From an uncultured bacterium (GTDB lineage Bacteria; Acidobacteriota; HRBIN11; JAKEFK01), in assembly GCA_963777505.1 (NCBI GenBank), contig CAVZQN010000008.1:507679-571678 (forward strand): 64,000 bases of DNA. Direction: 5' to 3'. The notes beneath the pieces are model-generated. The model searched no databases. It was not told where the DNA came from and saw nothing but the letters and a program-made list of their open reading frames with translations. The first letter of the stretch is position 1. Each line of letters starts with the position of its first letter. Shown here one piece after another: positions 4,750 to 56,245 of this stretch. A program made the translations under genes and the position numbers.

Positions 4750-6320
4750 CTAGTACGAATAGTCCAGCGCCTTGTACATGACGTTCTGGTGGATCATGTG
4801 CGGCCGCGCGCCCTTCAGGCGCTTGTTGGTCACCATGTGCAGGCCGACGTTCATCACCGGAATCCAGAGATGATTTTCGCTGATGCGCTTCTGCGCGAGG
4901 CCGTAGTACTTCGCGCGGTCCTTCTCGGTCAGCGCCGAGCGGCCGGCCTTCAGCCATTCGTCGGTCTGCGGATCGTTCCAGAACATCCGGTTCGGCACCG
5001 GGATGTTCGATGAATCGAAATAGTAGTTCAGAAGATCGCCGGCCGAGAGGTAGGAGTACGTCACGGTCCAGAGTTCGTAGTCGAGTTCGGCCATCTTCGC
5101 CGGCGCAATCGTCGAGTCGAAGCCGATGATGTTCCAGTCGACGCCGATCTGGCGCATGTAGCCCTGGATCGCCTCGGACACGCGCGGACCGTACGAGACC
5201 GCGGTGAAGTAGACCTTCGGCGCGAGCTTCACGCCGTCCTTGTAGCGGAAGCCGTCGGGGCCCATCTTCCATCCGGCCTCGTCGAGCAGCTTCTTCGCCC
5301 GCTCGACGTCCTCCTTGACGTGCGTCATGCCGTCTTCGTAGTCGAGCGCCGCCGGATCGACGAAGGTGTAGGCGGGGTCGGCGTGGCCCTGCACCGTGCT
5401 CTTGACGATGTCGGCGCGCTTGATGGCGATGCTCATCGCCTCGCGCACGCGCGGATCGGCGACCAGCGGCCGGTTGGTCTTGAAGCCGAAGTAGTTGAGC
5501 AGGTGCATCGGTTTCGCCTGCTGCACCTGCAGCATCGGCGCCTTGCTGACCTGATCGAGGAATTGCAACGGCATGTTGTGGGTGATGTCGAAACTGCCGC
5601 TCATCATCGCCGCGACGACGGGCAGAGTCCTCGGGCACGATGGTGATGACCATCTTCTCGAATTTGACCGGACCCTTGTTCTTGTACATCGACGGGCCCC
5701 ACTTGTAGGCGTCGTGCCGTTTGAGCACCGTCTGCGTGCGCGGCTTGCCAGGACTCGAAACACCACGGACCGGTGCCGTCGATCGCCTGCGTGCCGTAGT
5801 CCTTGCCGTGCTTCTCCACGCTCTCCTGATTGTGGATCGCCATGCTGAAGCTCGAGAAGTTGAGCATCAGGTCGGAGTAGGGCTCGTTCAGCTCGTACTC
5901 GACGGTGTAGGGGTCGGGGGTGCGCAGGTCCTTCACGTTGCCGGCGCGCCATTTCAGCGGCGCCTTGGTGGCCGGATCGAGCAGGCGCTTGAAGCTGTAG
6001 ACCACGTCGGCGGAGGTGAACTTCTTGCCGCTAGCAGAACTGCACGTCGTCGCGCAGCTTGAAGGTGTAGGTCTTGCCGTCCTCGCTGATGGTCCAGGAT
6101 TTGGCGAGATAGGGAATGACGGTCCGGCCGTCCCAGTCGAGCGCGACCAGCGTGTCGAGGATCATGTTGGTGACGTCGGCGGTCGGCGCCCAGGTGGTGC
6201 GATGGCCGTCGAAGTGCGGCGCGTCGAGCGACTTCATCACCTTCAGCGTCTGCGCCTGCGCGGTCGAAGCCGCACAGGCCAGCATCGCCGTCGCCGCAAT
6301 CCCTTCGCGATCCCGCGCAT
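4750..6320 (-). CDS. ABC transporter substrate-binding protein, family 5 (peptide/nickel; frameshifted)
   Basis: Signal peptide (..ASTAQA), PYLAKSWTISEDGKTYTFKLRDDV, DGTGPW and VREAMSIAI. GGGAGA RBS before the ATG at 6320. Confidence 0.85.
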
Positions 6321-6772
6321 CGTCGTCTCCCTTTACGTTCTTATTGAATTCTCCGTACTTCCAGGTCGCCAGTTGGACGTCGCATGCGAAACGCGCTGAG
6401 GCCCGAAGACCTCGCGGCAGCGATCATCTCGATGATTTGTATGCGTCTGCGTCAGCCCACTGCGGGCTTTCGGGACCGGTCAGGCAATGGATGTGCTTCC
6501 ACCCCACGCGTATCACTCCCGGAACAGGCGCTGACAAGTCTTGCGCTTCCATGGCCCGTCGCCGAAAGCTTGCAGCCTCACCCCGTTGGCGTCAAGGATG
6601 CGATCGCGTTGCGGTGCCGCAGGCTGTCGCGATCTGACACCTGGAAGCTGGCAGGATCACAGCCGTGCCCTGCGGCGCGACGCTTGGTCTGCTTCCGTAC
6701 AATGCGCCTGCACTGTGCTGTGGTGGTGTGGAGTGCGGCGACGCGAGTAGATCGCAGCGCGGCTAAGCCACC

Positions 6773-14399: not shown

Positions 14400-14421
14400 T
14401 CTGAAAGGCTGCGAGTAATCG

Positions 14422-15523
14422 ATGACTGCTGTTCTGCTCGAAAACGTCAGCCGCGCCTTCGGCACGGCGCTTGCGGTGGATCGGGTCAACCTGAAGGTCG
14501 AGGCGGGCGAGTTCCTGACGCTGCTCGGCCCGTCCGGCTGCGGCAAGACCACCACGCTGCGCATGATCGCGGGGCTGGAGCAGAACACGACCGGGCGCAT
14601 CACCATCGGCGACGCGGTCGTCAGCGACGCCGATCGCTCGATCTTCGTGGCGGCGGAGCGCCGCCGCCTCGGCATGGTGTTCCAGTCCTACGCGATCTGG
14701 CCGCACATGACGGTGTTCGACAACGTCGCCTATCCCTTGCGCATCCGCCGCCGCCCGCGGCCGAGATCAAGGAGCGGGTGATGAAGACGCTCGGTCTCGT
14801 CGAGATGGAGCAGCTACGCCGAGCGTCCGGCGCCGGCGCTGTCGGGCGGCCAGCAGCAGCGCGTCGCCATTGCGCGCGCGCTGGTGTTCGAGCCCGAGGT
14901 GCTGCTGCTCGACGAGCCGCTGTCGAACCTCGATGCGCGGCTGCGGACGCAGATGGGCGACGAATTCCGCAAGCTGCAGAAGCGGCTCGGCATCACCAGC
15001 CTTTACGTCACGCACGATCAGGAAGAGGCGATGGCGCTGTCCGACCGCGTGGTGGTGATGCAGGGCGGCAAGATCCTGCAGGTCGGCTCGCCGGAAGAAA
15101 TCTATCAGCGGCCCGGCAGCCGCAGCGTCGCCGCCTTCTTCGGTTCGCCCAACCTGCTCGACGCCGAGGTGACGGCGAGCCAGCCGGCGGAGGCCGGCTA
15201 CTTCCGCCTCGACGTCGCCGGCAAGGACTGGCGCGGCCAGTGCCGCGCGGCCGCGCGTCTTTCGCCCGGCACGCGTGTCGGCGTGCTGGTGCGGCCGGAG
15301 ACGATTTCGCTGTCGTCGAACGGCGCGGCCGGCGACGGCCGATGCCATCCGCTGGACGGGCAAGGTGAAGGACATGATTTTCCGCGGCTCGCGCCGTTCG
15401 ATCGCGGTGGAGACGGCGGCGCAAACGCTGCGCGTCGAGGCGCCGTCGCAGCAGCCGGTTGCGGTCGGCGATACCGTCACGCTGACGACGCCGGCGAACA
15501 CCGCCTGGGCGATCGAAGGCTGA
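14422..15523 (+). CDS. ABC transporter ATP-binding protein with TOBE domain (frameshifted)
   Basis: [31 protein letters not shown] and YVTHDQEEA. Confidence 0.92.
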
Positions 15524-15525
15524 AG

Positions 15526-17265
15526 ATGGCCAGAAAGCTTCGCAGCAACGCGGAATACGGCAATGCGCGCTGGGCGACGCGGCGCGCGCTGTGGCGCGCG
15601 CTCGGCCTGACGGACGCGGACTTCGACAAGCCGAAGATCGCGGTGGTGAATTCATCGTCCGATCTGGCGATCTGCTACTCCCATCTCGACGGCATTGCCA
15701 AGCGCATGAAGGAGGCGATCCGCGCCGCCGGCGCCGTCGCCTTCGAGGTGCGCACCACCGCGCCGGCCGACTTCGTCACCTCGTGGGGCCATCGCGGCGG
15801 CTACATCCTCTCCGCGCGCGACCTGATCACCAACGACATCGAGGCGCAGGTCGAGGGCGCGCTGCTCGACGGCATGGTCTGCCTCGCCTCCTGCGACAAG
15901 ACCCCGCCCGGCCAGCTGATGGCCGCGGGACGGCTGAACATCCCGACGCTGATCTTCTGCTGCGGCTACCAGCCGAGCGGCCAGCACAAGGGCCATCTCT
16001 GCGACATCGAGGACGTGTTCGCGACCGCCGGCGGGCTGGCCTTCGGCAAGGTCTCGATCGACGAGATCAAGGAGATGAGCGACGTCGCCATCCAGGGGCC
16101 CGGCGTCTGCGCCGGCATGGGCACGGCCAACACGCTGCATGCCGCCTGCGAGGCGCTCGGCATGTCGCTGCCCGGCTCGACGCCGATCCTCGCCAACAGC
16201 GACAGGATGTGGGAGTTCGTCGAACAGGCGGGCAGGCGCATCGTCGCGATGATCGACGAGGACCTGAAGCCGCGCGACATTCTCACGACCGAGGCGTTCG
16301 AGAACGCGGTGATGGTCATGCTCTGCGTCAGCGGCTCGATCAACTCGGCCAAGCATCTGGCGGCGGTCGCGCAGGAGGCCGGCTGCGACGTCGACGTCTA
16401 CAAGCTGTTCGAAAAATATGCCGACGTCATTCCGCTGCTGACCGCGGTGCGTCCGAACGGCGACGCCACCACCGAAGCCTTCGAGGCGGCCGGCGGCACG
16501 CAGGGCGTGATGAAGCAGCTGCAGCAGTTCATGAAGACCGGCGCGCGGACCGTCACCGGCAAGACGCTGGCCGAGAATCTCGCGAGCTTCAAGGTGACGG
16601 ACGAGGAGACCATCCGTCCGGTCTCGCGTCCGCTCGGCAAGCATCCGACCATCGTCATGCTGCGCGGCAGCCTCTCGCCGGAAACCAGCATCGTCAAACT
16701 CAGCGTCACCGAGCAGCGCAATCTGCAGCTGCGCGGCCCCGCGGTCGTGTTCGAGAACGCGCTCGACGCCATCAACGGCATCCAGGACGGCAAGGTCAGC
16801 GCCGGCCAGGTGGTCGTCGTGCGCGGCCTCGGCCCGAGGGGAACGCCCGGCATGGGCGTCGCGTCGGCGGTGGTCTTCGCCGTGCTCGGCGCGGGGCTCG
16901 CCGGCAAGGTCGCCGTCGTCACCGATGGTCAGCTTTCGGGCCTCACCAATGTCGGCATCACCGTCGCCGAGGTTGCGCCCGAAGCGGCGGCCGGCGGTCC
17001 GATCGGCCTGGTCGAGAACGGCGACATCATCGCCATCGACGTCGAGAAGCGGACGGCCGATCTTGAAGTCTCCGAGCCGAAGCTCGCGCGCCGTCGCAGG
17101 AACATGACGCGCTGGGACAAGACCGACGAGCGCGGCTGGCTGGCCATGTACCGCGAACTGGTCGAGCCGGTCGGCAAAGGCCGATTCTCCGGCGTTGAGC
17201 GCGCCTCTCGCTTGCGGGACGACAGCGTTAACGGTGCGTCAATAAACGCGGTTACCAAAGCCTGA
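15526..17265 (+). CDS. dihydroxy-acid dehydratase family (IlvD/Edd) enzyme, divergent
   Basis: [35 protein letters not shown] and [21 protein letters not shown]. Confidence 0.88.
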
Positions 17266-24156: not shown

Positions 24157-24468
24157 CATTCGCAGGCTCAAATGGTGCGCGATCGGCCGGCAGGCAATCA
24201 GCAGGCGATCCTGTTCGGCTTCGGTGACCCGCTATGCCAACCAGGTGCACCGGGACGGCGCCAGGGATACGGTCGCGGTACTGCTGATCGTCGGCGATGG
24301 CCCGGTCACCTCCTCGCCGTTCGCACCTCCATCGAAGTAATGGCCGCGGTTTTCAGGCTGTTCGTGTATGCTGCGGGCAGCCTGTTACCTGCGTGGCGGG
24401 CAGGTGTCTGGCGTCGTCGATAAGGTCTGCGCGCTGGACGGCGCACGGGTTTCGAAAGAGGCAGAATC

Positions 24469-26162
24469 ATGCAAAAGGCGGCCAGTTACGTCAGCGGAAC
24501 ATCGGATGCGCCGCTGCTCGGCATGACGATCGGAGAGGCGCTCGATCGGGCGCGGCTGCAGTGGGGCGAGCGCGAAGCGCTGGTGTCGCCGAGTCACGGC
24601 GTGCGGCTGAGCTGGCGCGAGTTCGCCGACCAGGTCGATGCGGTTGCGGCGGGCTTTCTCGCGCTCGGCCTCGAGCGTGGCGACCGCATCGGCATCTGGT
24701 CGCTGAACCGGCCGGAATGGACGCTGACGCAGTTCGCCGCCGCCAAGGCCGGGCTGATCCTGGTGACGATCAATCCGGCCTACCGCCTGAACGAACTGGA
24801 GTTCGCGCTCGCCAAGGTCGGCTGCAGCGCGCTGGTCACGGCGACCGCGTTCAAGACCAGCAACTACATGGAGATGATCAACACGCTTGCGCCGGAACTG
24901 GCGCGCTGCGCGCCGGGCGAACTCAAGGCGGCAAAGCTGCCGAAGCTCCGCACCGTCATCCAGATCGGCGGGCCGAAGCAGCCCGGCACGATCGCCTTCG
25001 AGGACGTGGCGGGCATGGGGCGTGATCGCCATCGCGAGATGCTGGCCGGCTTGTCGAAGAGCCTGCAGTTCGACGATCCGATCAACATCCAGTTCACCAG
25101 CGGCACCACCGGCTCGCCGAAGGGCGTGACGCTGACGCACCACAACATTCTCAACAACGGCTATTTCGTCGGCCGCGCCATGGCGCTGACCGAACGCGAC
25201 CGGATGTGCATCCCGGTGCCGCTCTATCACTGCTTCGGCATGGTGATGGGCAACCTCACGGCCGTGACGCATGGCTGCAGCGATGGTCTTTCCCGGCGAG
25301 GGCTTCGATCCGCTGGTGACGCTGACGACGATCGAGCAGGAGAAGTGCACGACGCTCTATGGCGTGCCGACGATGTTCATCGCCGAACTGGAGCATCCGG
25401 AGTTTTCGCGCTTCAACCTGTCGTCGCTGCGCACCGGCATCATGGCCGGCGCGCCGTGCCCGATCGAGGTGATGCGGCGGGTGATCGACAAGATGAACAT
25501 GCGCGACGTGACGATCGCCTACGGCATGACCGAGACCAGTCCGGTCAGCTTCCAGACCGGCATGAGCGACTACGGTGGAACGGCGCGTGTCGACGGTCGG
25601 CCGCGTTCATCCGCACATCGAGGTGAAGGTCGTCGATCTCGAGGGCAAGGTCGTGCCGCGCGGCGAGACCGGTGAACTGTGCACGCGCGGCTACAGCGTC
25701 ATGCTGGGCTACTGGGACGAACCGCAGAAGACCGCCGAGGTGCTGGACGACGGCGGCTGGATGCACACCGGCGATCTCGCCACCATCGACGACGAGGGCT
25801 ACGGCAACATCGTCGGCCGCATCAAGGACATGGTGATCCGCGGCGGCGAGAACCTCTATCCGCGCGAGATCGAGGAGTATCTCTACAAGCATCCGAAGGT
25901 CCAGGACGCCCAGGTGTTCGGCGTCGCCGACGACCGCTATGGCGAGGAGCTGTGCGCCTGGATTCGCGTCAAGCCCGGCGAGACGCTGACCGCGGAGGAG
26001 GTGCGTGCCTTCTGCCAGGGACAGATCGCCCACAACAAGATCCCGCGCTACATCGAGTTCGTCGCCGAGTTTCCGATGACCGTGACCGGCAAGGTGCAGA
26101 AGTTCATCATGCGCGACGTGGTCGAGCAGAAGCTCGGGCTGAAGCGGGCGAAGACGGCCTGA
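24469..26162 (+). CDS. AMP-binding acyl-CoA synthetase (frameshifted)
   Basis: [46 protein letters not shown] and TGKVQKF. Confidence 0.92.
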
Positions 26163-45979: not shown

Positions 45980-46392
45980 ATGACAGCTGCGGACGGAGCA
46001 AAATCCGGTCATCGTCTTCGACGCGATGTGCGTGCTCTGTTCGGCCAACGCGCAGCTTGTGCTGCGGCATGACCGGCGGCACCATTTCCGCCTCACGTCG
46101 ATGCAGAGCGAGGTGGGAACGGCGCTCTACCGGCGCTTCGGCATGGACCCTGCCGATCCGGACAGCCTCATCGTCGTGTCCGGTGACGACTGTGCGCGCG
46201 ACAGCGACGCGATTCTGACGATCTATTCCGCGCTCGGCTGGCCGTGGCGCGCGATGGCCGTCTTCCGCCTGGTGCCGAAGTTCGTGCGCGATCCCGCTCT
46301 ATCGCTGGCTCGCGCGCAACCGCTACCGGCTGTTCGGACAGCGCGAGACGTGCTGGATGCCGACGGCCGAGCAGAAGAGGTACGTCCTCTGA
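45980..46392 (+). CDS. DCC1-like thiol-disulfide oxidoreductase (DUF393; frameshifted)
   Basis: VIVFDAMCVLCS (DxxCxxC), RDSDAIL and ARNRYRLFG. Confidence 0.82.
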
Positions 46393-48051
46393 GCCGCATT
46401 CTCGTTCTTGGCGGATATGGCGGATTTGGCGCGCGCCTGACGCGAAGGCTGGCGGCACGCGGGCACACGGTCCTTGTTGCGGGACGAAGCCTTGCGAAGG
46501 CGCAGGCCTTCTGCGCGGAGCTCGAACGTGCAGAGCCGGTTGTTGCCGACCGGAACGGCGACATCGGTCCGCTGCTGGCGCAGCTCGACACCCGATCTGC
46601 GTGATCGATGCGGCCGGCCCGTTTCAGGGCAGCGATTATCGGCGTTCCGCGCGCATGCATCAAGGCTTCGATCCCGTATGTCGATCTCGCCGATGCGCGG
46701 GCGTTTGTCGCCGGCATCGGCGCCTTGCGGGCCGAGGCGAGCGCTGCCGGCGTAGCAATCATCGCCGGTGCGTCCAGTGTGCCGGCCTTGTCGGGGGCAG
46801 CGGCGACGGCGTCTTGCCGCCGGGCTCGATCGCGTCTGCACGATCGAGATCGCCATCAGCGCCGCAAAGCGCGCGACGCTCGGCGCATCGGTCGTCGCCG
46901 CGATTCTGAGCTATGCCGGCAGACCGATCCGTCTCTGGCGCGGACAGACGCTGGGAGCGGGCCTTCGGCTGGCAGGAGTTGCGGCGCGACGACTTTGTCC
47001 TGGGCGACGGCACCGGACTGAACAGGCGCTGGCTCGCACTGGCTGACGTTCCCGATCTGGATCTGCTGCCGGCAAGCCTGCCGGGCCGACCGTCCGTCGT
47101 CTTTCGTGCTGGAAACGAGTCTGCGCTGCAGGTCGTCGCGCTTGTGGCTGCTGACCTGGCCGGTGCGATGGTTCGGAATTTCGATCGGGAAACTGGCGCC
47201 GGTGTTGTCGTGGCTGCAGCGGCTGATGCAGATGGTTGAGCACGGATTGCTCCGCCATGATCGTGCGCATGCAAGGGCGAAGCGTCGGGCCGCTTCGTCG
47301 AGCGGCAGTGGACCCTCGTTGCACGGGATGGCGACGGGATCGAAATTCCGACGCTCGCGGCGGTGCTCGTGGCGGAGGACATCCTTGCCGGACGCGTCGT
47401 TTCCGGCGCCCGGTCCGCGGACAGGCTGCTGTCGCTTGCAGCGTTCGAGCCGTTGTTCTCGACCCTGTCGCTGCAGCACGAAGTTCGGGAGCGTTCGCTG
47501 CCGCCGCCGCTTTATGCGCGTGTCATGGGGCCGCGGTTCGCCGCGCTGCCGGCGGCGGTGCGCGAGATGCACTGGCTGTGCGGGGACGGCGGCGCATCCG
47601 GGCAGGCCAATGTCACGCGCGGCCGCAATCCGCTGGCGCGTCTCGTCGCGGTCGCTGATGCGTTTTCCGCCCGCCGGATCGCATCCGTTGCACGTTTCGT
47701 TTGTCGAGCGCGATGGCGTCGAGCGCTGGACGCGCCATTTCGGCGACCGGAGCTTCTCCAGCCATCTGAGCGAGCAGGCGGGGCAGTTGGTCGAGCGGTT
47801 CGGCGCGCTGCGCTTCGTTTTCGATCTTCCGTCCGACGAGCACGGGCTGACGATGCACATATCGCCGCTGGAGCGTGTTCGGCCTGCCATTGCCGCTGGC
47901 GCTGGCGCCGCGCACGTCAGCGCGAGAATGGGAGGAAGACAGCCGCTTCCACTTCGACGTGCCGATCTCGCTGCCCTTGATCGGGCTGATCGTGCACTAC
48001 GCCGGGTGGCTGCAGCCGGAAGGTCGCGCGGTCACACCGAAATCCGTCTGA
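46389..48051 (+). CDS. saccharopine dehydrogenase-like NAD(P)-binding protein fused to DUF4166 (frameshifted)
   Basis: ILVLGGYGGFG, DAAGPFQ, YVDLAD, GASSVPALS and, C-terminally, LYARVMGPRFAALPAAVR...ERWTRHFG...FHFDV...YAGWL. Confidence 0.78.
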
Positions 48052-48388
48052 AGACGGAGCTGTTGGTCAGGAAGCTTTCCCAGATTTCCGCCTCCCTTGC
48101 CGGATCGGCTGCTTGAGCCGGCCTGACCAGGTGCCACATGGTGTGCAGCGTCGCGCCGCCCTCGGCCGGGAGTTCGAGCCGTCCGGCCCAGCTGGTCAGC
48201 GAGCCGGCCGAAGGCCATGCGACGACGAGCCCAATCGTCATGCCGTTCGCCAATCCGACGACGCGGTGAGTCTTGCCGACCACCGCGGAATTGCCGATTT
48301 GCGTCAGATACTGCCCGGTGATCTCATCCTCGCGCTGCTGCAAAACCATCGCGCCGCCGCGTTCGTTGATCCAGGTACCATTGAACAT
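48032..48388 (-). CDS. avidin/streptavidin-family protein (118 aa, no signal peptide)
   Basis: GTWINERG, ITGQYLT, VAW..SLTSWAG, LHTMWHL and W...VFRR align with the avidin fold. GGAGGGG RBS. Confidence 0.8.
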   Translation of the reverse strand: MFNGTWINERGGAMVLQQREDEITGQYLTQIGNSAVVGKTHRVVGLANGMTIGLVVAWPSAGSLTSWAGRLELPAEGGATLHTMWHLVRPAQAADPAREAEIWESFLTNSSVFRRISV

Positions 48389-48490
48389 GACCCCTCCCGC
48401 AGAAATCGACGGCACGCAAGCCGGCTCGACGTCTTGAATACATCTTCGTCCGGGTGCGAATATGGCGATCGACCGGCCGGTGCAGGCAAG

Positions 48491-49127
48491 ATGTTTCTTT
48501 ACGACGGACCCGAAAACGCAAAGGCGACGCTCCTGCTTGCGCATGGGGCAGGCGCGCCGATGGATTCGGCGGCGATGACCACGCTGGCGAAAACGCTTGC
48601 GAAACATGACCTTCGCATCGCGCGTTTCGAATTCGGTTACATGGCGGGCCGGCGCACCGCGGCCGGCCGCAAGCCGCCGCCGCGCGCCGAAAAGCTGACG
48701 GCGGAGTACCTCGCCGCCATCGCGGCGCTCGGCGCCAAATCGCCGCTGGTGATCGGCGGCAAGTCGATGGGCGGGCGCGTTGCCAGCATGATCGCCGATG
48801 AGTTGTTCGCGGCCGGAACGATCGCCGGCCTGTTGTGCCTCGGCTATCCGTTCCATCCGATCGGCAAGCCGGAGCAACTGCGCACCGCGCATCTCGGCGA
48901 GATGAAGACGCCGGCGCTGATCGCGCAAGGCACCCGCGATCCCTTCGGCACGCGCGGAGGAGGTCGCAGCCTACAAGCTGTCGAAGCGCATCGAGATCCT
49001 CTGGCTCGAGGACGGCGACCACGACCTGAAACCGCGCAAGGCGGTGTCCGGCTTCTCCGCCGCCGACCATCTTGCGACGCTGGGACAGGCGGTGGCGGCG
49101 TGGGTCGCGCGCATCACCGCCGCATGA
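48491..49127 (+). CDS. alpha/beta hydrolase (KANL3/Tex30-like; frameshifted)
   Basis: LLAHGAGAPMDS, GGKSMGGR, LGYPFHP, QGTRDPFG and DGDHDL. Confidence 0.85.
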
Positions 49128-49891
49128 AGATTGCCACCTTCAACATCAACAACGTGAACCGGCGGCTGCCGAACCTGCTGGCCTGGCTCGCGGCGGCGAA
49201 GCCGGACGTCGTCTGCCTGCAGGAACTGAAGGCCGCGCAGAACCAGTTTCCGGAAAAAGCGCTGCGCGATGCCGGCTACGTCGCGGCATGGGTCGGCGAG
49301 CGGTCGTGGAACGGCGTTGCGATCCTCGCGCGGAAGGCGGAGCCGGTGGTCATTCGCACGCGGCTTCCCGGCGATCCGAAAGATGTTCAGGCGCGATACC
49401 TCGAGGCGGCGGTGAGGGGCGTCGTCATCGCCTGCGTCTATGCGCCGAACGGCAATCCGCAGCCCGGACCGAAATTCGACTACAAGCTCGCCTGGCTGGC
49501 GCGCCTGCGCCGGCACGCCGCGACGCTGCTGAAAACCGGCGCTCCGGTGGTCATCGCCGGCGACTTCAATGTCGCACCGACCGCACTCGACATTTATCCG
49601 ACCCGCTCGTGGGACAAGGACGCGCTGGTGCAGCCGGAAAGCCGCGCCGCGTATGCAAAGCTGCTGCAGCAGGGATGGACCGACGCGTTCCGGGAATTGC
49701 ATCCGCAGGCGCGCGCCTACTCGTTCTGGGACTACAAGCGCAACCGCTGGCCGCGTGACGCCGGACTGCGTCTCGATCACCTGCTGCTCAGCCCAAATCT
49801 GGTGCCGGTGCTGAAGAAGGCTGTGATCGACAAGGCGGTGCGCGGCGAAGAGGGAGCGAGCGACCACGCGCCGATGTGGATTGTCGTGTGA
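49124..49891 (+). CDS. xth: exodeoxyribonuclease III
   Basis: MKIATFNIN, LQELK, YAPNG, GDFNVAP, RLDHLL and SDHAP. Confidence 0.92.
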   Translation: MKIATFNINNVNRRLPNLLAWLAAAKPDVVCLQELKAAQNQFPEKALRDAGYVAAWVGERSWNGVAILARKAEPVVIRTRLPGDPKDVQARYLEAAVRGVVIACVYAPNGNPQPGPKFDYKLAWLARLRRHAATLLKTGAPVVIAGDFNVAPTALDIYPTRSWDKDALVQPESRAAYAKLLQQGWTDAFRELHPQARAYSFWDYKRNRWPRDAGLRLDHLLLSPNLVPVLKKAVIDKAVRGEEGASDHAPMWIVV

Positions 49892-50519: not shown

Positions 50520-52399
50520 CTACGGCGCGGCGAGCACCAGGGTCGCGACCGTCAGGCCGTCCGCGCGGTCCAGCGAGAAGTTGGCGCCGAGCGATTGCGC
50601 CCGCACGGCGATGCTCTTCAATCCCTGGCTGTTTCCTCTCGATGCCGCGGGTGCCGCGTTCGGGCCGACGCCATTGTCCTTGATGGATACGAACCCGACC
50701 TTGGTCGTTGCGCCGAGCCGTCGAGCCTGTCCCGCAATCCGACGTGGAACGTGATCTCGGTGGCGCCACCATGCCGGACGGCGTTGTTCAGGCATTCCTG
50801 CACGATGCGCAGCACGTGCAGCGTCGACTCTGCACCGAGGTTCAGGTCTTCCGCGCCGTCGTCGACCTCCCAGAGCGTGCGCACACCGAAGGATGCGAGC
50901 CGCGGTTCAAGGCGATGGCGAAGGTTCGAGAGCGCGTCGACCAGCGTTTCGGTGCTCGTGCTTCGCGCGTCGATCAGAAGCCGCAATTCGTCCAGCGACG
51001 ACTGGATGCCGTCGGTCACCTCCGAGCTCGAAAGGTTGCCGCCCTTGAGGCCGCTCAGCAGCAGCGACAGATGCGTGCCGACCCCGTCATGCATGTCACG
51101 CATCAGCCGGTGGCGCTCCTCGATCGTCACGGCTTCCGCATCGCTTTGCCGTTTCTTCTCGTAGAGTTCGTCGAGTTCCTGTCGTGCCGCCGCGATCTTC
51201 CTTTCGAGGTCGGCGTTGGCGTTGCGCAGCGAAAGCTTCGCCGTGGCGACGTCATCGGCGAGCGCAAGACCCATCACCAGCAGCAGGAAGGGGAAGCTGA
51301 GCGGGAACCATTGCGTAGCGGAATAGCTGATGACGCCCAGCAGCCAGAGCAGGTCGTGCACCGCAGGCGCGACCTGTGCTGCGAGCGCGCACGCCATCAG
51401 GAGCCGCGGCGTGTTCGGCGCGCGGAAGGTTTCGACGGCAAGCACGATCATGCAATAGATGCCGGCGAGCAGAATGGGCAATCGCCAGACGATGGCGTCG
51501 AACCTTGAAAACATCCATGGCGGAATGAGGAACAGGGCGACCGTGCCGATTGCCGTGAAGGCGATGATCGAACGTTCGAAGGTTGCGTTTCGCCAGCCGA
51601 CGTAACGGGTCAGAAAGACATAGAGCGGTAGCGCCGACCACCCGAGGCTCGCCGCAATCAGGGGCGGCATCAGACCGAGCGGCAGGACCTGAACGTCAAA
51701 CTGACGGTGGAAATTGCGCGCAGCAAACACGATCGCGCCGATTGCGAACAGCCCGTAGAGCTGGGAGTTCTTCGGATCCCGCAGCCACAGCAGCACGAAC
51801 GGAACGCACATCGCCAGCACGATCCAGTTGGACAGCTTCAGAAACTCGTCCTGGATCAGCCGCCGGTTGGTGTAGGAGTCGCGCAAGTCCGCCAGCGGGC
51901 CGATGTAGACTTCGGACAGGCCCGCGCCGTCGTTTGCGTAGCCGTGCACGCGGATGGTGAGAGTGTTCTCGCCGTCGACGATGGCCGTGACCGGCAGCTC
52001 CGCCAGGATCGTCCGGTTGGATCCGCGAACCTGCGCAACGCCGCTGTCCGAGTAGATCAGTTCTCCGTTGAGCAGGACGTCGCAATAGGTCTTGACGCGA
52101 GGAACGAAGACAGCCTGGCGAGGTCCGTCTTTCCGCGCTTCGACCGCAAAGCGGTAGTCGATGTCGCCGCCGAAGCCGCGCCGCCTCTGGTCCCAGGCGT
52201 CGGGGAGCGTCACGCGCGCTGCCTGTTCGCTGCCGGCGCGACCCGCGGCATCGGCGCCGGGCACCTGCGCGATTGCGCTGTCCCGCTTGCTGGCGGCGGG
52301 CGGCGGCGAGGAGGTTGTGTAGGAGAGGGCGACCGGCAGCAGCAGCACTGCGACGAGCAGTACCGCGACCGGCAGCTTGCGGAGTCTTGCCGCTCTCAT
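50520..52399 (-). CDS. membrane sensor histidine kinase (7TM-DISM-like input, HisKA_3 type; frameshifted at 3' end)
   Basis: Extracellular beta domain, about 7 TM helices, RLMRDMHDGVG, ECLNNAVRH and DNGVG. Confidence 0.85.
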
Positions 52400-52473
52400 C
52401 CCGCGCGAGCGACAGCGCCTGCGACATCGTCATGACGGAAGTCCGGGTCCTGCGTCACATCCCAGGTTCGAGT

Positions 52474-53160
52474 TCACAGAAGTCCGAGCCGGGTGGCCTC
52501 GAACACGGCTTCGCCGCGCGAGTTCACTTCCAGCTTGCGATAGATGTTCTTGGCGTGAGAGCGCGTGGTGGTGTGGGACACGTGCAGGAGCTGCGCCACC
52601 TCCACCAGCGAGAAGCCCTTCGCGACGAGTCGCAGCACCTCGATCTCGCGGGCCGACAGCGAAACGTTTTCGTCGCGCGTGGATACCGACACACCGGTGG
52701 CGGGCTTGTCGCCGGCGTCGACTCCCATGCGGCGGGCGCGCGCGGGCTCCTGCAGCCGGCGCAGGATATGGCGGGCGATCTTCGGGCTCAGCGGCGAATG
52801 GCCGGCGCGCAAATCCGCGATCGCCGTGACCCATTCCTTGGGGGTGCTGTCCTTGACGAGGTAGCCGGTTGCGCCGGCGCAGATCGCGGAGACGACGCTT
52901 TTCTCGTCGTCGAATACGGTCGCGACCAGAATGTCCGCGTCGGGCCGCAGCCGCCGCGACGTCCGGATGGCGTCGATGCCGCTGCCGTCGGGCAGGCCGA
53001 GATCGACGATGAAGATGTCGAAGTCGATCGCCCTGATCGCACTCAGAGCGTCGCTCAGGTTCGCGCACATTGTCACGATCCTGAGCTCCGGATCGGCGAC
53101 AACGATGCTGGAGATCGTTGCCTGCCAGTGCGGCTCATCCTCCAGAACAAGCAGGCGCAT
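52474..53160 (-). CDS. NarL/LuxR-family response regulator
   Basis: VLEDE, VDLGLPDGSG, GYLVK and LSAREIEVL...KNIYRKL. Confidence 0.93.
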   Translation of the reverse strand: MRLLVLEDEPHWQATISSIVVADPELRIVTMCANLSDALSAIRAIDFDIFIVDLGLPDGSGIDAIRTSRRLRPDADILVATVFDDEKSVVSAICAGATGYLVKDSTPKEWVTAIADLRAGHSPLSPKIARHILRRLQEPARARRMGVDAGDKPATGVSVSTRDENVSLSAREIEVLRLVAKGFSLVEVAQLLHVSHTTTRSHAKNIYRKLEVNSRGEAVFEATRLGLL

Positions 53161-53294
53161 GGCGATCGACCTCTGCGGGACGTTTGCTCTGTCATTATAT
53201 CATCCAAAGGTTGTGCGTCACCGGCCAAAACCGGGCAATTCGAACCAGGCGCCCCGATTGTTCGAAAGCGATGCGAATGCCGTGTTCTCGCCGG

Positions 53295-55623: not shown

Positions 55624-56245
55624 ATGCCGGCCACCGCGCTGAAGGTCCGCGAACCAACCACCCACGTCGAGCGGCGCGAGGAGGCCGAGCGCAAGCTGCT
55701 GGCAGCGGCGGCGAAGATCATCGCCGTGAAGGGCCTCGAACGCTTCACGCTCGCCGAGGTCGGCGAGACCGCGGGCTACAGCCGCGGGCTGCCGCGGCAC
55801 TATTTCGGCGACAAGGACGAACTGACGATCCGCGTCGCGCTCTACGTCGCCGAGCATCCGATCCTGCAGGAGCGGCTGCAGGTCGAGCCGGGCCTCGAGA
55901 CGGTGATCAGCATGATCCGCTTCTTCTTCGCGGTCGCGCCGAAGTACCGCACCAACGTGCGCGCGCTGTCGATCGTGCTTGCCGGCGTGCTGACCAGCGA
56001 CTCGCTGAAGGAGCCGATCGCGCGCATGACCCGCGCCAAGCGCGCGGCGCTCGCCGAACACATCGCGATCGGCATCAAGCAGCGGCGAGATCCGCAAGGA
56101 CGTGAACCCCGCAGCGCAGGCGATCCTGATCCTGTCGCAGATGCGCGGCGTCGTCACGCAATGGCTGAGCGACGAGGCGGCGGTCGACCTGAAGGCGGTC
56201 GAAGCCGAGTTCATCGCCACGCTGCGGCGCGGACTGGCGGCCTGA
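55624..56245 (+). CDS. TetR/AcrR regulator (frameshifted)
   Basis: FTLAEVGETAGYSRGLPRHYFGDKDEL HTH. Confidence 0.88.

Follow-up and report, generated by a model that had tools for sequence, protein, structure and literature searches.

What does an avidin that carries no export signal bind, and where does it act? The question is raised by a short gene on a stretch of 64,000 nucleotides (hereafter the window) from an uncultured bacterium of the Acidobacteriota (HRBIN11; JAKEFK01), which covers positions 507,679 to 571,678 of contig CAVZQN010000008.1 in assembly GCA_963777505.1. The gene encodes an avidin-family protein of 118 amino acids. We infer that this protein is probably a cytoplasmic, tetrameric binder of biotin or of a close analogue, with reduced affinity. 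It is one of many leaderless bacterial proteins in a well-known family and belongs to an uncharacterised clade; the kind of protein itself is not new. What avidins do for the organisms that make them is unsettled in general (PMC8033661), and a literature search that covered few subscription journals found no biochemical characterisation of any leaderless bacterial avidin.

Family, fold and the missing leader

Membership of the avidin family, proposed in a preliminary description of this DNA, is demonstrated by the profile and sequence comparisons. The Pfam Avidin model (PF01382) matches residues 2-113 of the protein over model positions 2-115 of 116, with 62.3 bits against a cutoff of 24 (E 7.1e-17). 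A sequence search of the PDB returned 48 avidin-family sequences at E<=1, with xenavidin (1.2e-8), agroavidin (3.8e-8), afifavidin (1e-6) and tamavidin 2 (1.2e-6) at the top and core streptavidin at 0.0024. The NCBIfam equivalog model for streptavidin (NF047623) scored 20.7 bits and did not reach its cutoff of 300; the protein is therefore not a streptavidin orthologue. The fold was predicted with AlphaFold2 from an alignment of 121 relatives, and the model has eight strands, a mean predicted local distance difference test score (pLDDT) of 94.2 and a predicted template modelling score of 0.84. When this model was compared with the PDB by Foldseek, 467 of the best 500 matches had E<=0.001, and the matches listed were all avidin-family structures with template modelling (TM) scores of 0.75-0.84, zebavidin, AVR4, avidin, xenavidin, shwanavidin, rhizavidin and streptavidin among them. 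We regard it as confirmed that the protein belongs to the avidin family, with a predicted fold of an eight-stranded antiparallel beta-barrel.

The complex prediction supports assembly into tetramers. Four copies of the chain scored 0.88 (0.88, 0.89 and 0.88 in separate runs) against 0.02 for the best control, the contacts agreed by at least 94% between runs, and the partner chains had a pLDDT of 82 or more. When the method was calibrated, 20 of 30 proteins whose solved structures are pairs passed the mark, as did 1 of 23 whose solved structures are single chains; these counts are only roughly valid for a prediction made with its own alignment and with four copies. One predicted interface comprises residues 44-59, 62-70 and 82-90; the other comprises residues 10, 86-87 and 103-109, that is, the loop of W103 together with R10. 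W103 corresponds to the tryptophan (W120) by which each streptavidin subunit contributes to the pocket of the adjacent one. The high score may only mirror the likeness of the chain to solved avidin tetramers, and it supports the assembly without showing it.

The absence of a leader depends on where translation starts. The features at the start of the gene are the following.

48032..48388, minus strand: leaderless avidin-family coding sequence, 118 amino acids, with ATG at 48388..48386 and TGA at 48034..48032 (open reading frame with translation, Pfam Avidin match)
48391..48398, minus strand: Shine-Dalgarno-like run GGGAGGGG, whose GGAGG core ends 4 nt before the ATG (read directly from the sequence)
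48389..48490, no strand: intergenic region of 102 base pairs (bp) between the avidin gene and a divergent alpha/beta-hydrolase gene, whose ATG is at 48491 on the plus strand

We take the ATG at 48388 as the start of the avidin gene. The run GGGAGGGG at 48398..48391 would serve as its ribosome-binding site, and the G+C content of third codon positions keeps to a single phase over 48000-48450, a stretch that includes the open reading frame, and fades upstream of 48388. The relative P0002, which is 97% identical and comes from other data, is likewise 118 amino acids long and shows no insertion or deletion with respect to this frame. An extended reading of the same frame, beginning with a TTG at 48928, was rejected; it overlaps the divergent hydrolase gene, and its Pfam match (residues 182-293) is no better, with 58.9 as against 62.3 bits. 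The promoter is presumed to lie within the intergenic region, where a promoter and terminator scan found no sigma-70-like site and no terminator-like site; the single terminator-like site of the scan is unrelated to the avidin gene.

From this start the avidin barrel begins at residue 2-4, and no hydrophobic or signal-peptide-like stretch occurs upstream of the ATG in any of the three frames. The protein contains no cysteine, and neither does streptavidin. Both features had been noted in the preliminary description, and the relatives bear out the missing signal peptide. A word-indexed search gave a set of 20 close relatives among 28 candidates (50-97% identity, 105-132 amino acids). The 18 whose N-terminus is aligned start 0-16 residues before the G-x-W motif of the barrel, with no hydrophobic stretch; the remaining two start inside the barrel and are thus uninformative with regard to the leader. 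In a FastTree phylogeny of 121 rows, computed from only 128 alignment columns and with most of its deeper forks unresolved, the protein falls in a clade of 18 rows (Shimodaira-Hasegawa-like support 98) within a group of 47 rows (support 95). Judged by a Kyte-Doolittle window hydropathy heuristic, which is not SignalP and which is applied to metagenomic gene starts that may be wrong, a hydrophobic leader is found in 0 of the 47 rows of this group and in 15 of the 74 rows outside it. At most 17 residues precede G-x-W in 45 of the 47. On this comparison of sequences, the absence of a leader is real and ancestral to the clade.

The same calls on the 150 best representative clusters of the family gave 25 with a hydrophobic leader, 60 with at most 17 residues before the barrel and 51 with a non-hydrophobic extension of 18-60 amino acids; the remainder had long extensions (5), an unaligned N-terminus (8) or no domain (1). 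The preliminary description had pointed out that the characterised bacterial avidins are exported, and had argued that an avidin in the cytoplasm would sequester the cell's own biotin unless its affinity or specificity had changed. Export as a rule holds for the characterised proteins only, as a signal peptide is found in only about 50% of putative bacterial avidins (Laitinen et al. 2021, PMC8033661). Because about half of them are without one, the leaderless state is not unusual. The argument from the missing leader meets a counterexample in tamavidins 1 and 2, which are listed as verified avidins and start 9-10 residues before their G-T-W motif (PMC8033661). These proteins are without a leader and verified nevertheless, which means that the absence of a leader does not force a changed specificity.

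The binding pocket and its likely ligand

The pocket was mapped onto streptavidin in an alignment made by eye and anchored on identical motifs, for which the precursor sequence was taken from supplementary file 2 of PMC8033661; numbering from the mature N-terminus of streptavidin reproduces the usual residue numbers. The HMMER alignment to xenavidin provided a cross-check. The equivalents (this protein = streptavidin) and the two stretches of the gene that encode the diagnostic motifs are as follows.

Pocket positions: N8 = N23, R10 = L25, G12 = S27, Y27 = Y43, T29 = S45
Pocket positions, continued: N33 = N49, W58 = W79, S63 = S88, T65 = T90, W67 = W92
Pocket positions, continued: W85 = W108, L87 = L110, W103 = W120, N109 = G126, S111 = D128
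48353..48367, minus strand: codons of N8-E9-R10-G11-G12, the beta1 turn (N-x-L-G-S in avidins), with N8, R10 and G12 at N23, L25 and S27 of streptavidin
48056..48082, minus strand: codons of W103 to S111, W-E-S-F-L-T-N-S-S, with W103, N109 and S111 at W120, G126 and D128 of streptavidin

The HMMER alignment agrees with this map, in that the same residues face N, L, S, Y, T, W, S, T, W, W and W of xenavidin, and S111 faces N117, a residue that sits at the biotin site (PMC2761383). The residue pattern is demonstrated by the two alignments, and every substitution listed in the preliminary description is present (S27 to G, D128 to S, L25 to R and G126 to N), as are the tryptophans and other positions that it had listed as retained. 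Eight residues of streptavidin form hydrogen bonds with biotin, namely N23, S27, Y43, S45, N49, S88, T90 and D128 (PMC4888747). Five of them are identical in the protein (N8, Y27, N33, S63 and T65), one is conservatively replaced (T29) and two are changed (G12 and S111); the aromatic box of W58, W67, W85 and W103 is complete.

We counted how often these residues occur among close relatives in an alignment of the protein with 23 of them (24 rows). W58, W67, W85, W103, Y27, T29 and S63 are present in all 24 rows, and N8 and T65 in 23. The position of D128 is occupied by serine (S111) in 23 rows and by a gap in the remaining one, and never by aspartate (0/24), which indicates that the aspartate was lost across the clade. 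Arginine stands at the L25 position in 20 of the 24 rows. The S27 position holds glycine in only seven rows and serine in the other 17. When 1.84 billion cluster representatives were scanned in full with HMMER, 254 matched at E<=0.001; 37 matches were at E<=1e-10 or better, and none reached E<=1e-30. Of the 74 aligned proteins that fall outside the 47-row clade, 11 have serine at the D128 position and 12 have arginine at the L25 position; the serine also recurs in 10 of the 25 leader-bearing representatives. For glycine at the S27 position the counts are 8 of 47 rows in the wider clade, none of the 74 rows outside it, and 2 of 141 classifiable representatives. Among the sequences compared, this glycine is the sole rare feature of the pocket; the other changes are mild or shared. 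The idea of a remodelled pocket thus stands insofar as two residues that contact the ureido group are changed, but one of these changes is found in only 7 of 24 rows, and D128 to S and L25 to R are found elsewhere in the family.

With streptavidin the protein shares the Pfam family, the predicted barrel (TM 0.75 to 4cpi), the four tryptophans of the pocket, the residues N23, Y43, N49, S88 and T90, the lack of cysteine, and a predicted dimer of dimers with the loop of the W120 equivalent in an interface. It differs from streptavidin in having no leader, in the four substitutions given above and in W75 to L, and, in the alignment made by eye, in a beta5-beta6 loop that is four residues shorter and a beta1-beta2 turn that is one residue shorter. 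The fungal tamavidins 1 and 2, which bind biotin with high affinity, are leaderless as well, and tamavidin 2 (2zsc, E 1.2e-6) also has W-E-S after its interface tryptophan. However, the tamavidins are eukaryotic and keep the aspartate of D128, tamavidin 1 keeps the Ser27 equivalent, and tamavidin 2 has asparagine at the G26 position. Xenavidin (2uyw, E 1.2e-8, aligned residues 3-117, TM 0.80) and agroavidin (8ast, E 3.8e-8, TM 0.77-0.81) are 25-28% identical to the protein in the structural alignments; the precursor of xenavidin differs in having a hydrophobic leader, and xenavidin has L, S and N opposite R10, G12 and S111. Bradavidin II from Bradyrhizobium shares the arginine at the L25 position, with the beta1 turn N-E-R-G-S as compared to N-E-R-G-G, but it has a leader, aspartate at D128 and no context like that of W120, and it is a weak match (4ggr, E 0.22).

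Parallels to the leaderless form are found among the survey entries of PMC8033661. BURK_BACT1, CUPR_SP01 and RALS_PICK are leaderless and have the sequence W-E-T-F-L-S-N-S-A, which is close to W-E-S-F-L-T-N-S-S of the protein, and their turn reads G-G-G instead of G-S. The 'Metavidins' METH_EXTO and PARA_TERR are also leaderless and begin with M-F-x-G-x-W like the clade studied here, but several of the pocket residues retained in this clade are gone from them. A search for the motifs WESFLT, SFLTN, HTVWHL and VAWPA found no occurrence in either of the two supplementary files of PMC8033661, and the absence of these four clade motifs indicates that the clade itself was not in the 2021 survey.

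With the aromatic box and most of the polar ring retained, biotin or a compound very close to it is the most likely ligand. The invariance of the biotin-contact positions, which suggests purifying selection, would be difficult to account for if the ligand did not resemble biotin. The protein probably binds less tightly than streptavidin does, since throughout the clade serine replaces the aspartate that contacts a ureido NH, and in this protein the hydroxyl of Ser27 is gone too. In streptavidin, isothermal titration calorimetry gave a loss of 4.4 kcal/mol for D128A and of 4.3 kcal/mol for S45A (PMC4888747); given this cost of removing the carboxylate of D128, one would expect binding to be weakened and not abolished. 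The affinity may lie some orders of magnitude below that of streptavidin and yet still be tight. In the mechanism that we propose, each monomer would be an eight-stranded barrel, and four copies would most likely form a dimer of dimers like that of streptavidin, in which the W103 loop of one subunit would cap the pocket of its neighbour. The aromatic box and the polar ring (N8, Y27, T29, N33, S63 and T65) would grip the ligand, the polar ring by contacts to the ureido oxygen, the sulphur and the carboxylate of biotin. Such a protein could buffer, store or sequester biotin in the cell, could starve competitors after lysis of the cell, or could capture biotin-like molecules or antimetabolites.

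Several observations weigh against a cytoplasmic binder of biotin. Two of the eight hydrogen-bonding residues are changed (S27 to G and D128 to S), and a charged arginine stands at the L25 position; a pocket with bulky or charged residues may be unable to bind, and biochemistry is needed to judge function (PMC8033661). No domain for biotin synthesis, transport or ligation was found in the 53 open reading frames scanned in the window (14 + 39) or in the 20 scanned in the relatives' loci L001-L003, and the neighbours of the avidin gene are not conserved among these relatives' loci. The hydropathy heuristic is blind to leaderless routes of export. Finally, a tight binder of biotin in the cytoplasm would be expected to harm its own cell, so that the affinity, the expression or the ligand must differ from those of a classical avidin.

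Fusions to enzymes and competing explanations

Some members of the family are fused to enzymes. P0023, a protein of 613 amino acids, consists of a clade-type barrel at residues 1-118, with the same pocket signature including serine at the D128 position, followed by an FMO-like flavin monooxygenase (211 bits). P0171 (615 amino acids) has the same architecture and is 70% identical to P0023 over the full length, which indicates that the fusion is real and not a read-through artefact. In P0163 (277 amino acids), an N-terminal Macro domain (145 bits) precedes a leaderless avidin barrel (51 bits) that keeps aspartate at the D128 position. The partners in these fusions have nucleotide cofactors or ligands (flavin adenine dinucleotide and NADPH for the flavin monooxygenases, ADP-ribose for the Macro domain) and are intracellular enzymes. 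Fusion to partners of these kinds suggests that such barrels work inside the cell. The avidin-monooxygenase fusions are rare (two clusters), and among 415 longer candidates the 118-residue query found no fused protein at E<=0.001, a null result of little weight. The parts of PMC8033661 consulted here report fusions to aspartic peptidases and do not mention a pairing of avidin and monooxygenase.

An alternative explanation is that the protein serves inside the cell as a sponge or presenter for a molecule that resembles biotin, either an antimetabolite, in which case it would confer immunity, or a thioether metabolite that is passed to a partner oxidoreductase. A precedent exists in acidomycin, which is bound in the biotin pocket of streptavidin and neutralised (PMC13336041). 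A shifted specificity would fit the loss of the ureido-NH aspartate across the clade (23/24) and the way in which the polar residue at the L25 position varies, and the two clusters of monooxygenase fusions suggest a barrel that delivers its ligand to an oxygenase. However, the protein has the residues by which biotin itself is held at its ureido oxygen, sulphur and carboxylate, the genes found beside the avidin gene in the window and in L001-L003 include none for making look-alike compounds or resisting them, and the fusions are rare. We consider this explanation unlikely, at perhaps one chance in several.

A second alternative, to which we give a lower probability still, is that the fold has lost the binding of small molecules and now acts as a scaffold or protein binder. 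The avidin-like domain in fibropellins, which do not bind biotin, offers a parallel, and non-conservative changes in the pocket are numerous in clades such as the 'Metavidins' (PMC8033661); the protein studied here has an arginine in its pocket and is missing two of the donors or acceptors of hydrogen bonds. Nevertheless, the loss of binding in avidin required charged replacements of pocket tryptophans, W70R with W110K (PMC8033661), and all four pocket tryptophans are invariant in 24 of 24 rows. Furthermore, bradavidin II, which is listed as verified, has nearly the same beta1 turn with arginine in place of leucine.

The last alternative, that the missing leader is an artefact of assembly and that a true signal peptide was lost in a window whose frames are broken, draws on neighbouring genes that are themselves broken or falsely fused (46026-48051, 48113-49891 and 24424-26159), but it is very improbable and close to refuted, given that the 18 homologues with an aligned N-terminus come from other assemblies and start at the same place, that the upstream frames hold nothing like a signal peptide, that the intergenic gap to the divergent neighbour measures only 102 bp, that a Shine-Dalgarno-like run precedes the ATG, and that the clade has no leaders at all (0/47).

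Genomic surroundings and implications

The avidin gene stands alone, converging on a broken gene of the DUF4166 type and diverging from the alpha/beta-hydrolase gene. The 3' ends of the avidin gene and of the DUF4166-type open reading frame overlap by 20 bp (48032-48051), and the terminator scan found no hairpin of the terminator type between them. A scan of species-representative genomes gave four relatives' loci from 100 pattern matches, two from metagenome-assembled genomes of Acetobacteraceae (53% identity), one from a metagenome-assembled genome of Bradymonadia (34%) and one from Salinisphaera (a partial match). The neighbours in these loci include a DUF4915 protein with a TPR/glycosyltransferase protein, an SDR, an MFS transporter, a protein of the metallo-beta-lactamase fold and an acyl-CoA dehydrogenase. 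They differ from the neighbours in the window and include no biotin genes, and on the comparison of these four loci the idea of a conserved gene neighbourhood was rejected.

In the two Acetobacteraceae loci (L001, 1447-5987, and L002, 158-3846) the avidin gene lies near genes for a DUF4915 protein (462 bits) and a large TPR protein that resembles glycosyltransferase family 9. In L001 the avidin barrel, with M-F-x-G-x-W at about 6001, starts within about 15 bp of the end of the TPR protein at 5987 on the same strand, and in L002 the DUF4915/TPR pair lies 2 kb from the avidin gene on the other strand. The two genomes are related, and this proximity may simply be inherited from their common ancestor. 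L002 also has an FMO-like gene at a distance of 3 kb from its avidin gene, on the opposite strand, to which we give no weight. An origin in defence systems or phages was also considered and rejected, as the protein had no hits in PADLOC and none in PHROGs. Among plasmid relatives, 46 records were found, all below 60% identity (best 33.9%) and mostly annotated in Xanthomonas as 'avidin/streptavidin family protein'; no member of the clade was among them. The only megablast matches of the window among plasmid and chromid records were in the hydrolase/exonuclease III stretch, at about 74% identity to Sinorhizobium and Rhizobium replicons; taken by itself, this similarity is weak evidence for an alphaproteobacterium.

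Many other genes of the window are split or fused. At 46026-48051, DCC1, saccharopine-dehydrogenase and DUF4166 domains are divided among several phases, and at 48113-49891 an Abhydrolase_11 domain runs into exonuclease III within one open reading frame. An AMP-binding enzyme occupies three frames at 24424-26159, an SBP_bac_5 gene lies in two pieces at 4753-6423, and a fragment of an ABC ATPase runs into dihydroxy-acid dehydratase at 14419-17262. Either insertion and deletion errors in the assembly or decay of the genome could account for this. A sensor kinase of the 7TMR-DISM/HisKA_3 type and a LuxR-type response regulator are encoded at 50621-53199 on the minus strand, 2-5 kb from the avidin gene, with no sign that they regulate it. 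The only tRNA found in the window is a tRNA-Tyr (anticodon GTA) at 55720-55811 on the minus strand.

If the protein simply binds biotin tightly, it would be one more avidin. As a small avidin without cysteine, probably soluble in the cytoplasm and with a pocket in which Asp to Ser and Ser to Gly changes occur naturally, it could serve as a reversible binder of biotin. The most interesting lead is provided by the avidin-monooxygenase fusions, which offer a handle on the function of cytoplasmic avidins. We suggest, as a long shot, that the clade is a cytoplasmic capture module for biotin-like thioethers that works with oxidoreductases. In the fusions, the barrel would hand biotin or an antibiotic that mimics it to the monooxygenase for S-oxygenation, and the stand-alone form would act as a sponge against antimetabolites or as a store of biotin. 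If this were the case, then avidins would serve metabolism or immunity within bacterial cells, in addition to their classical part in starving competitors of biotin outside the cell.

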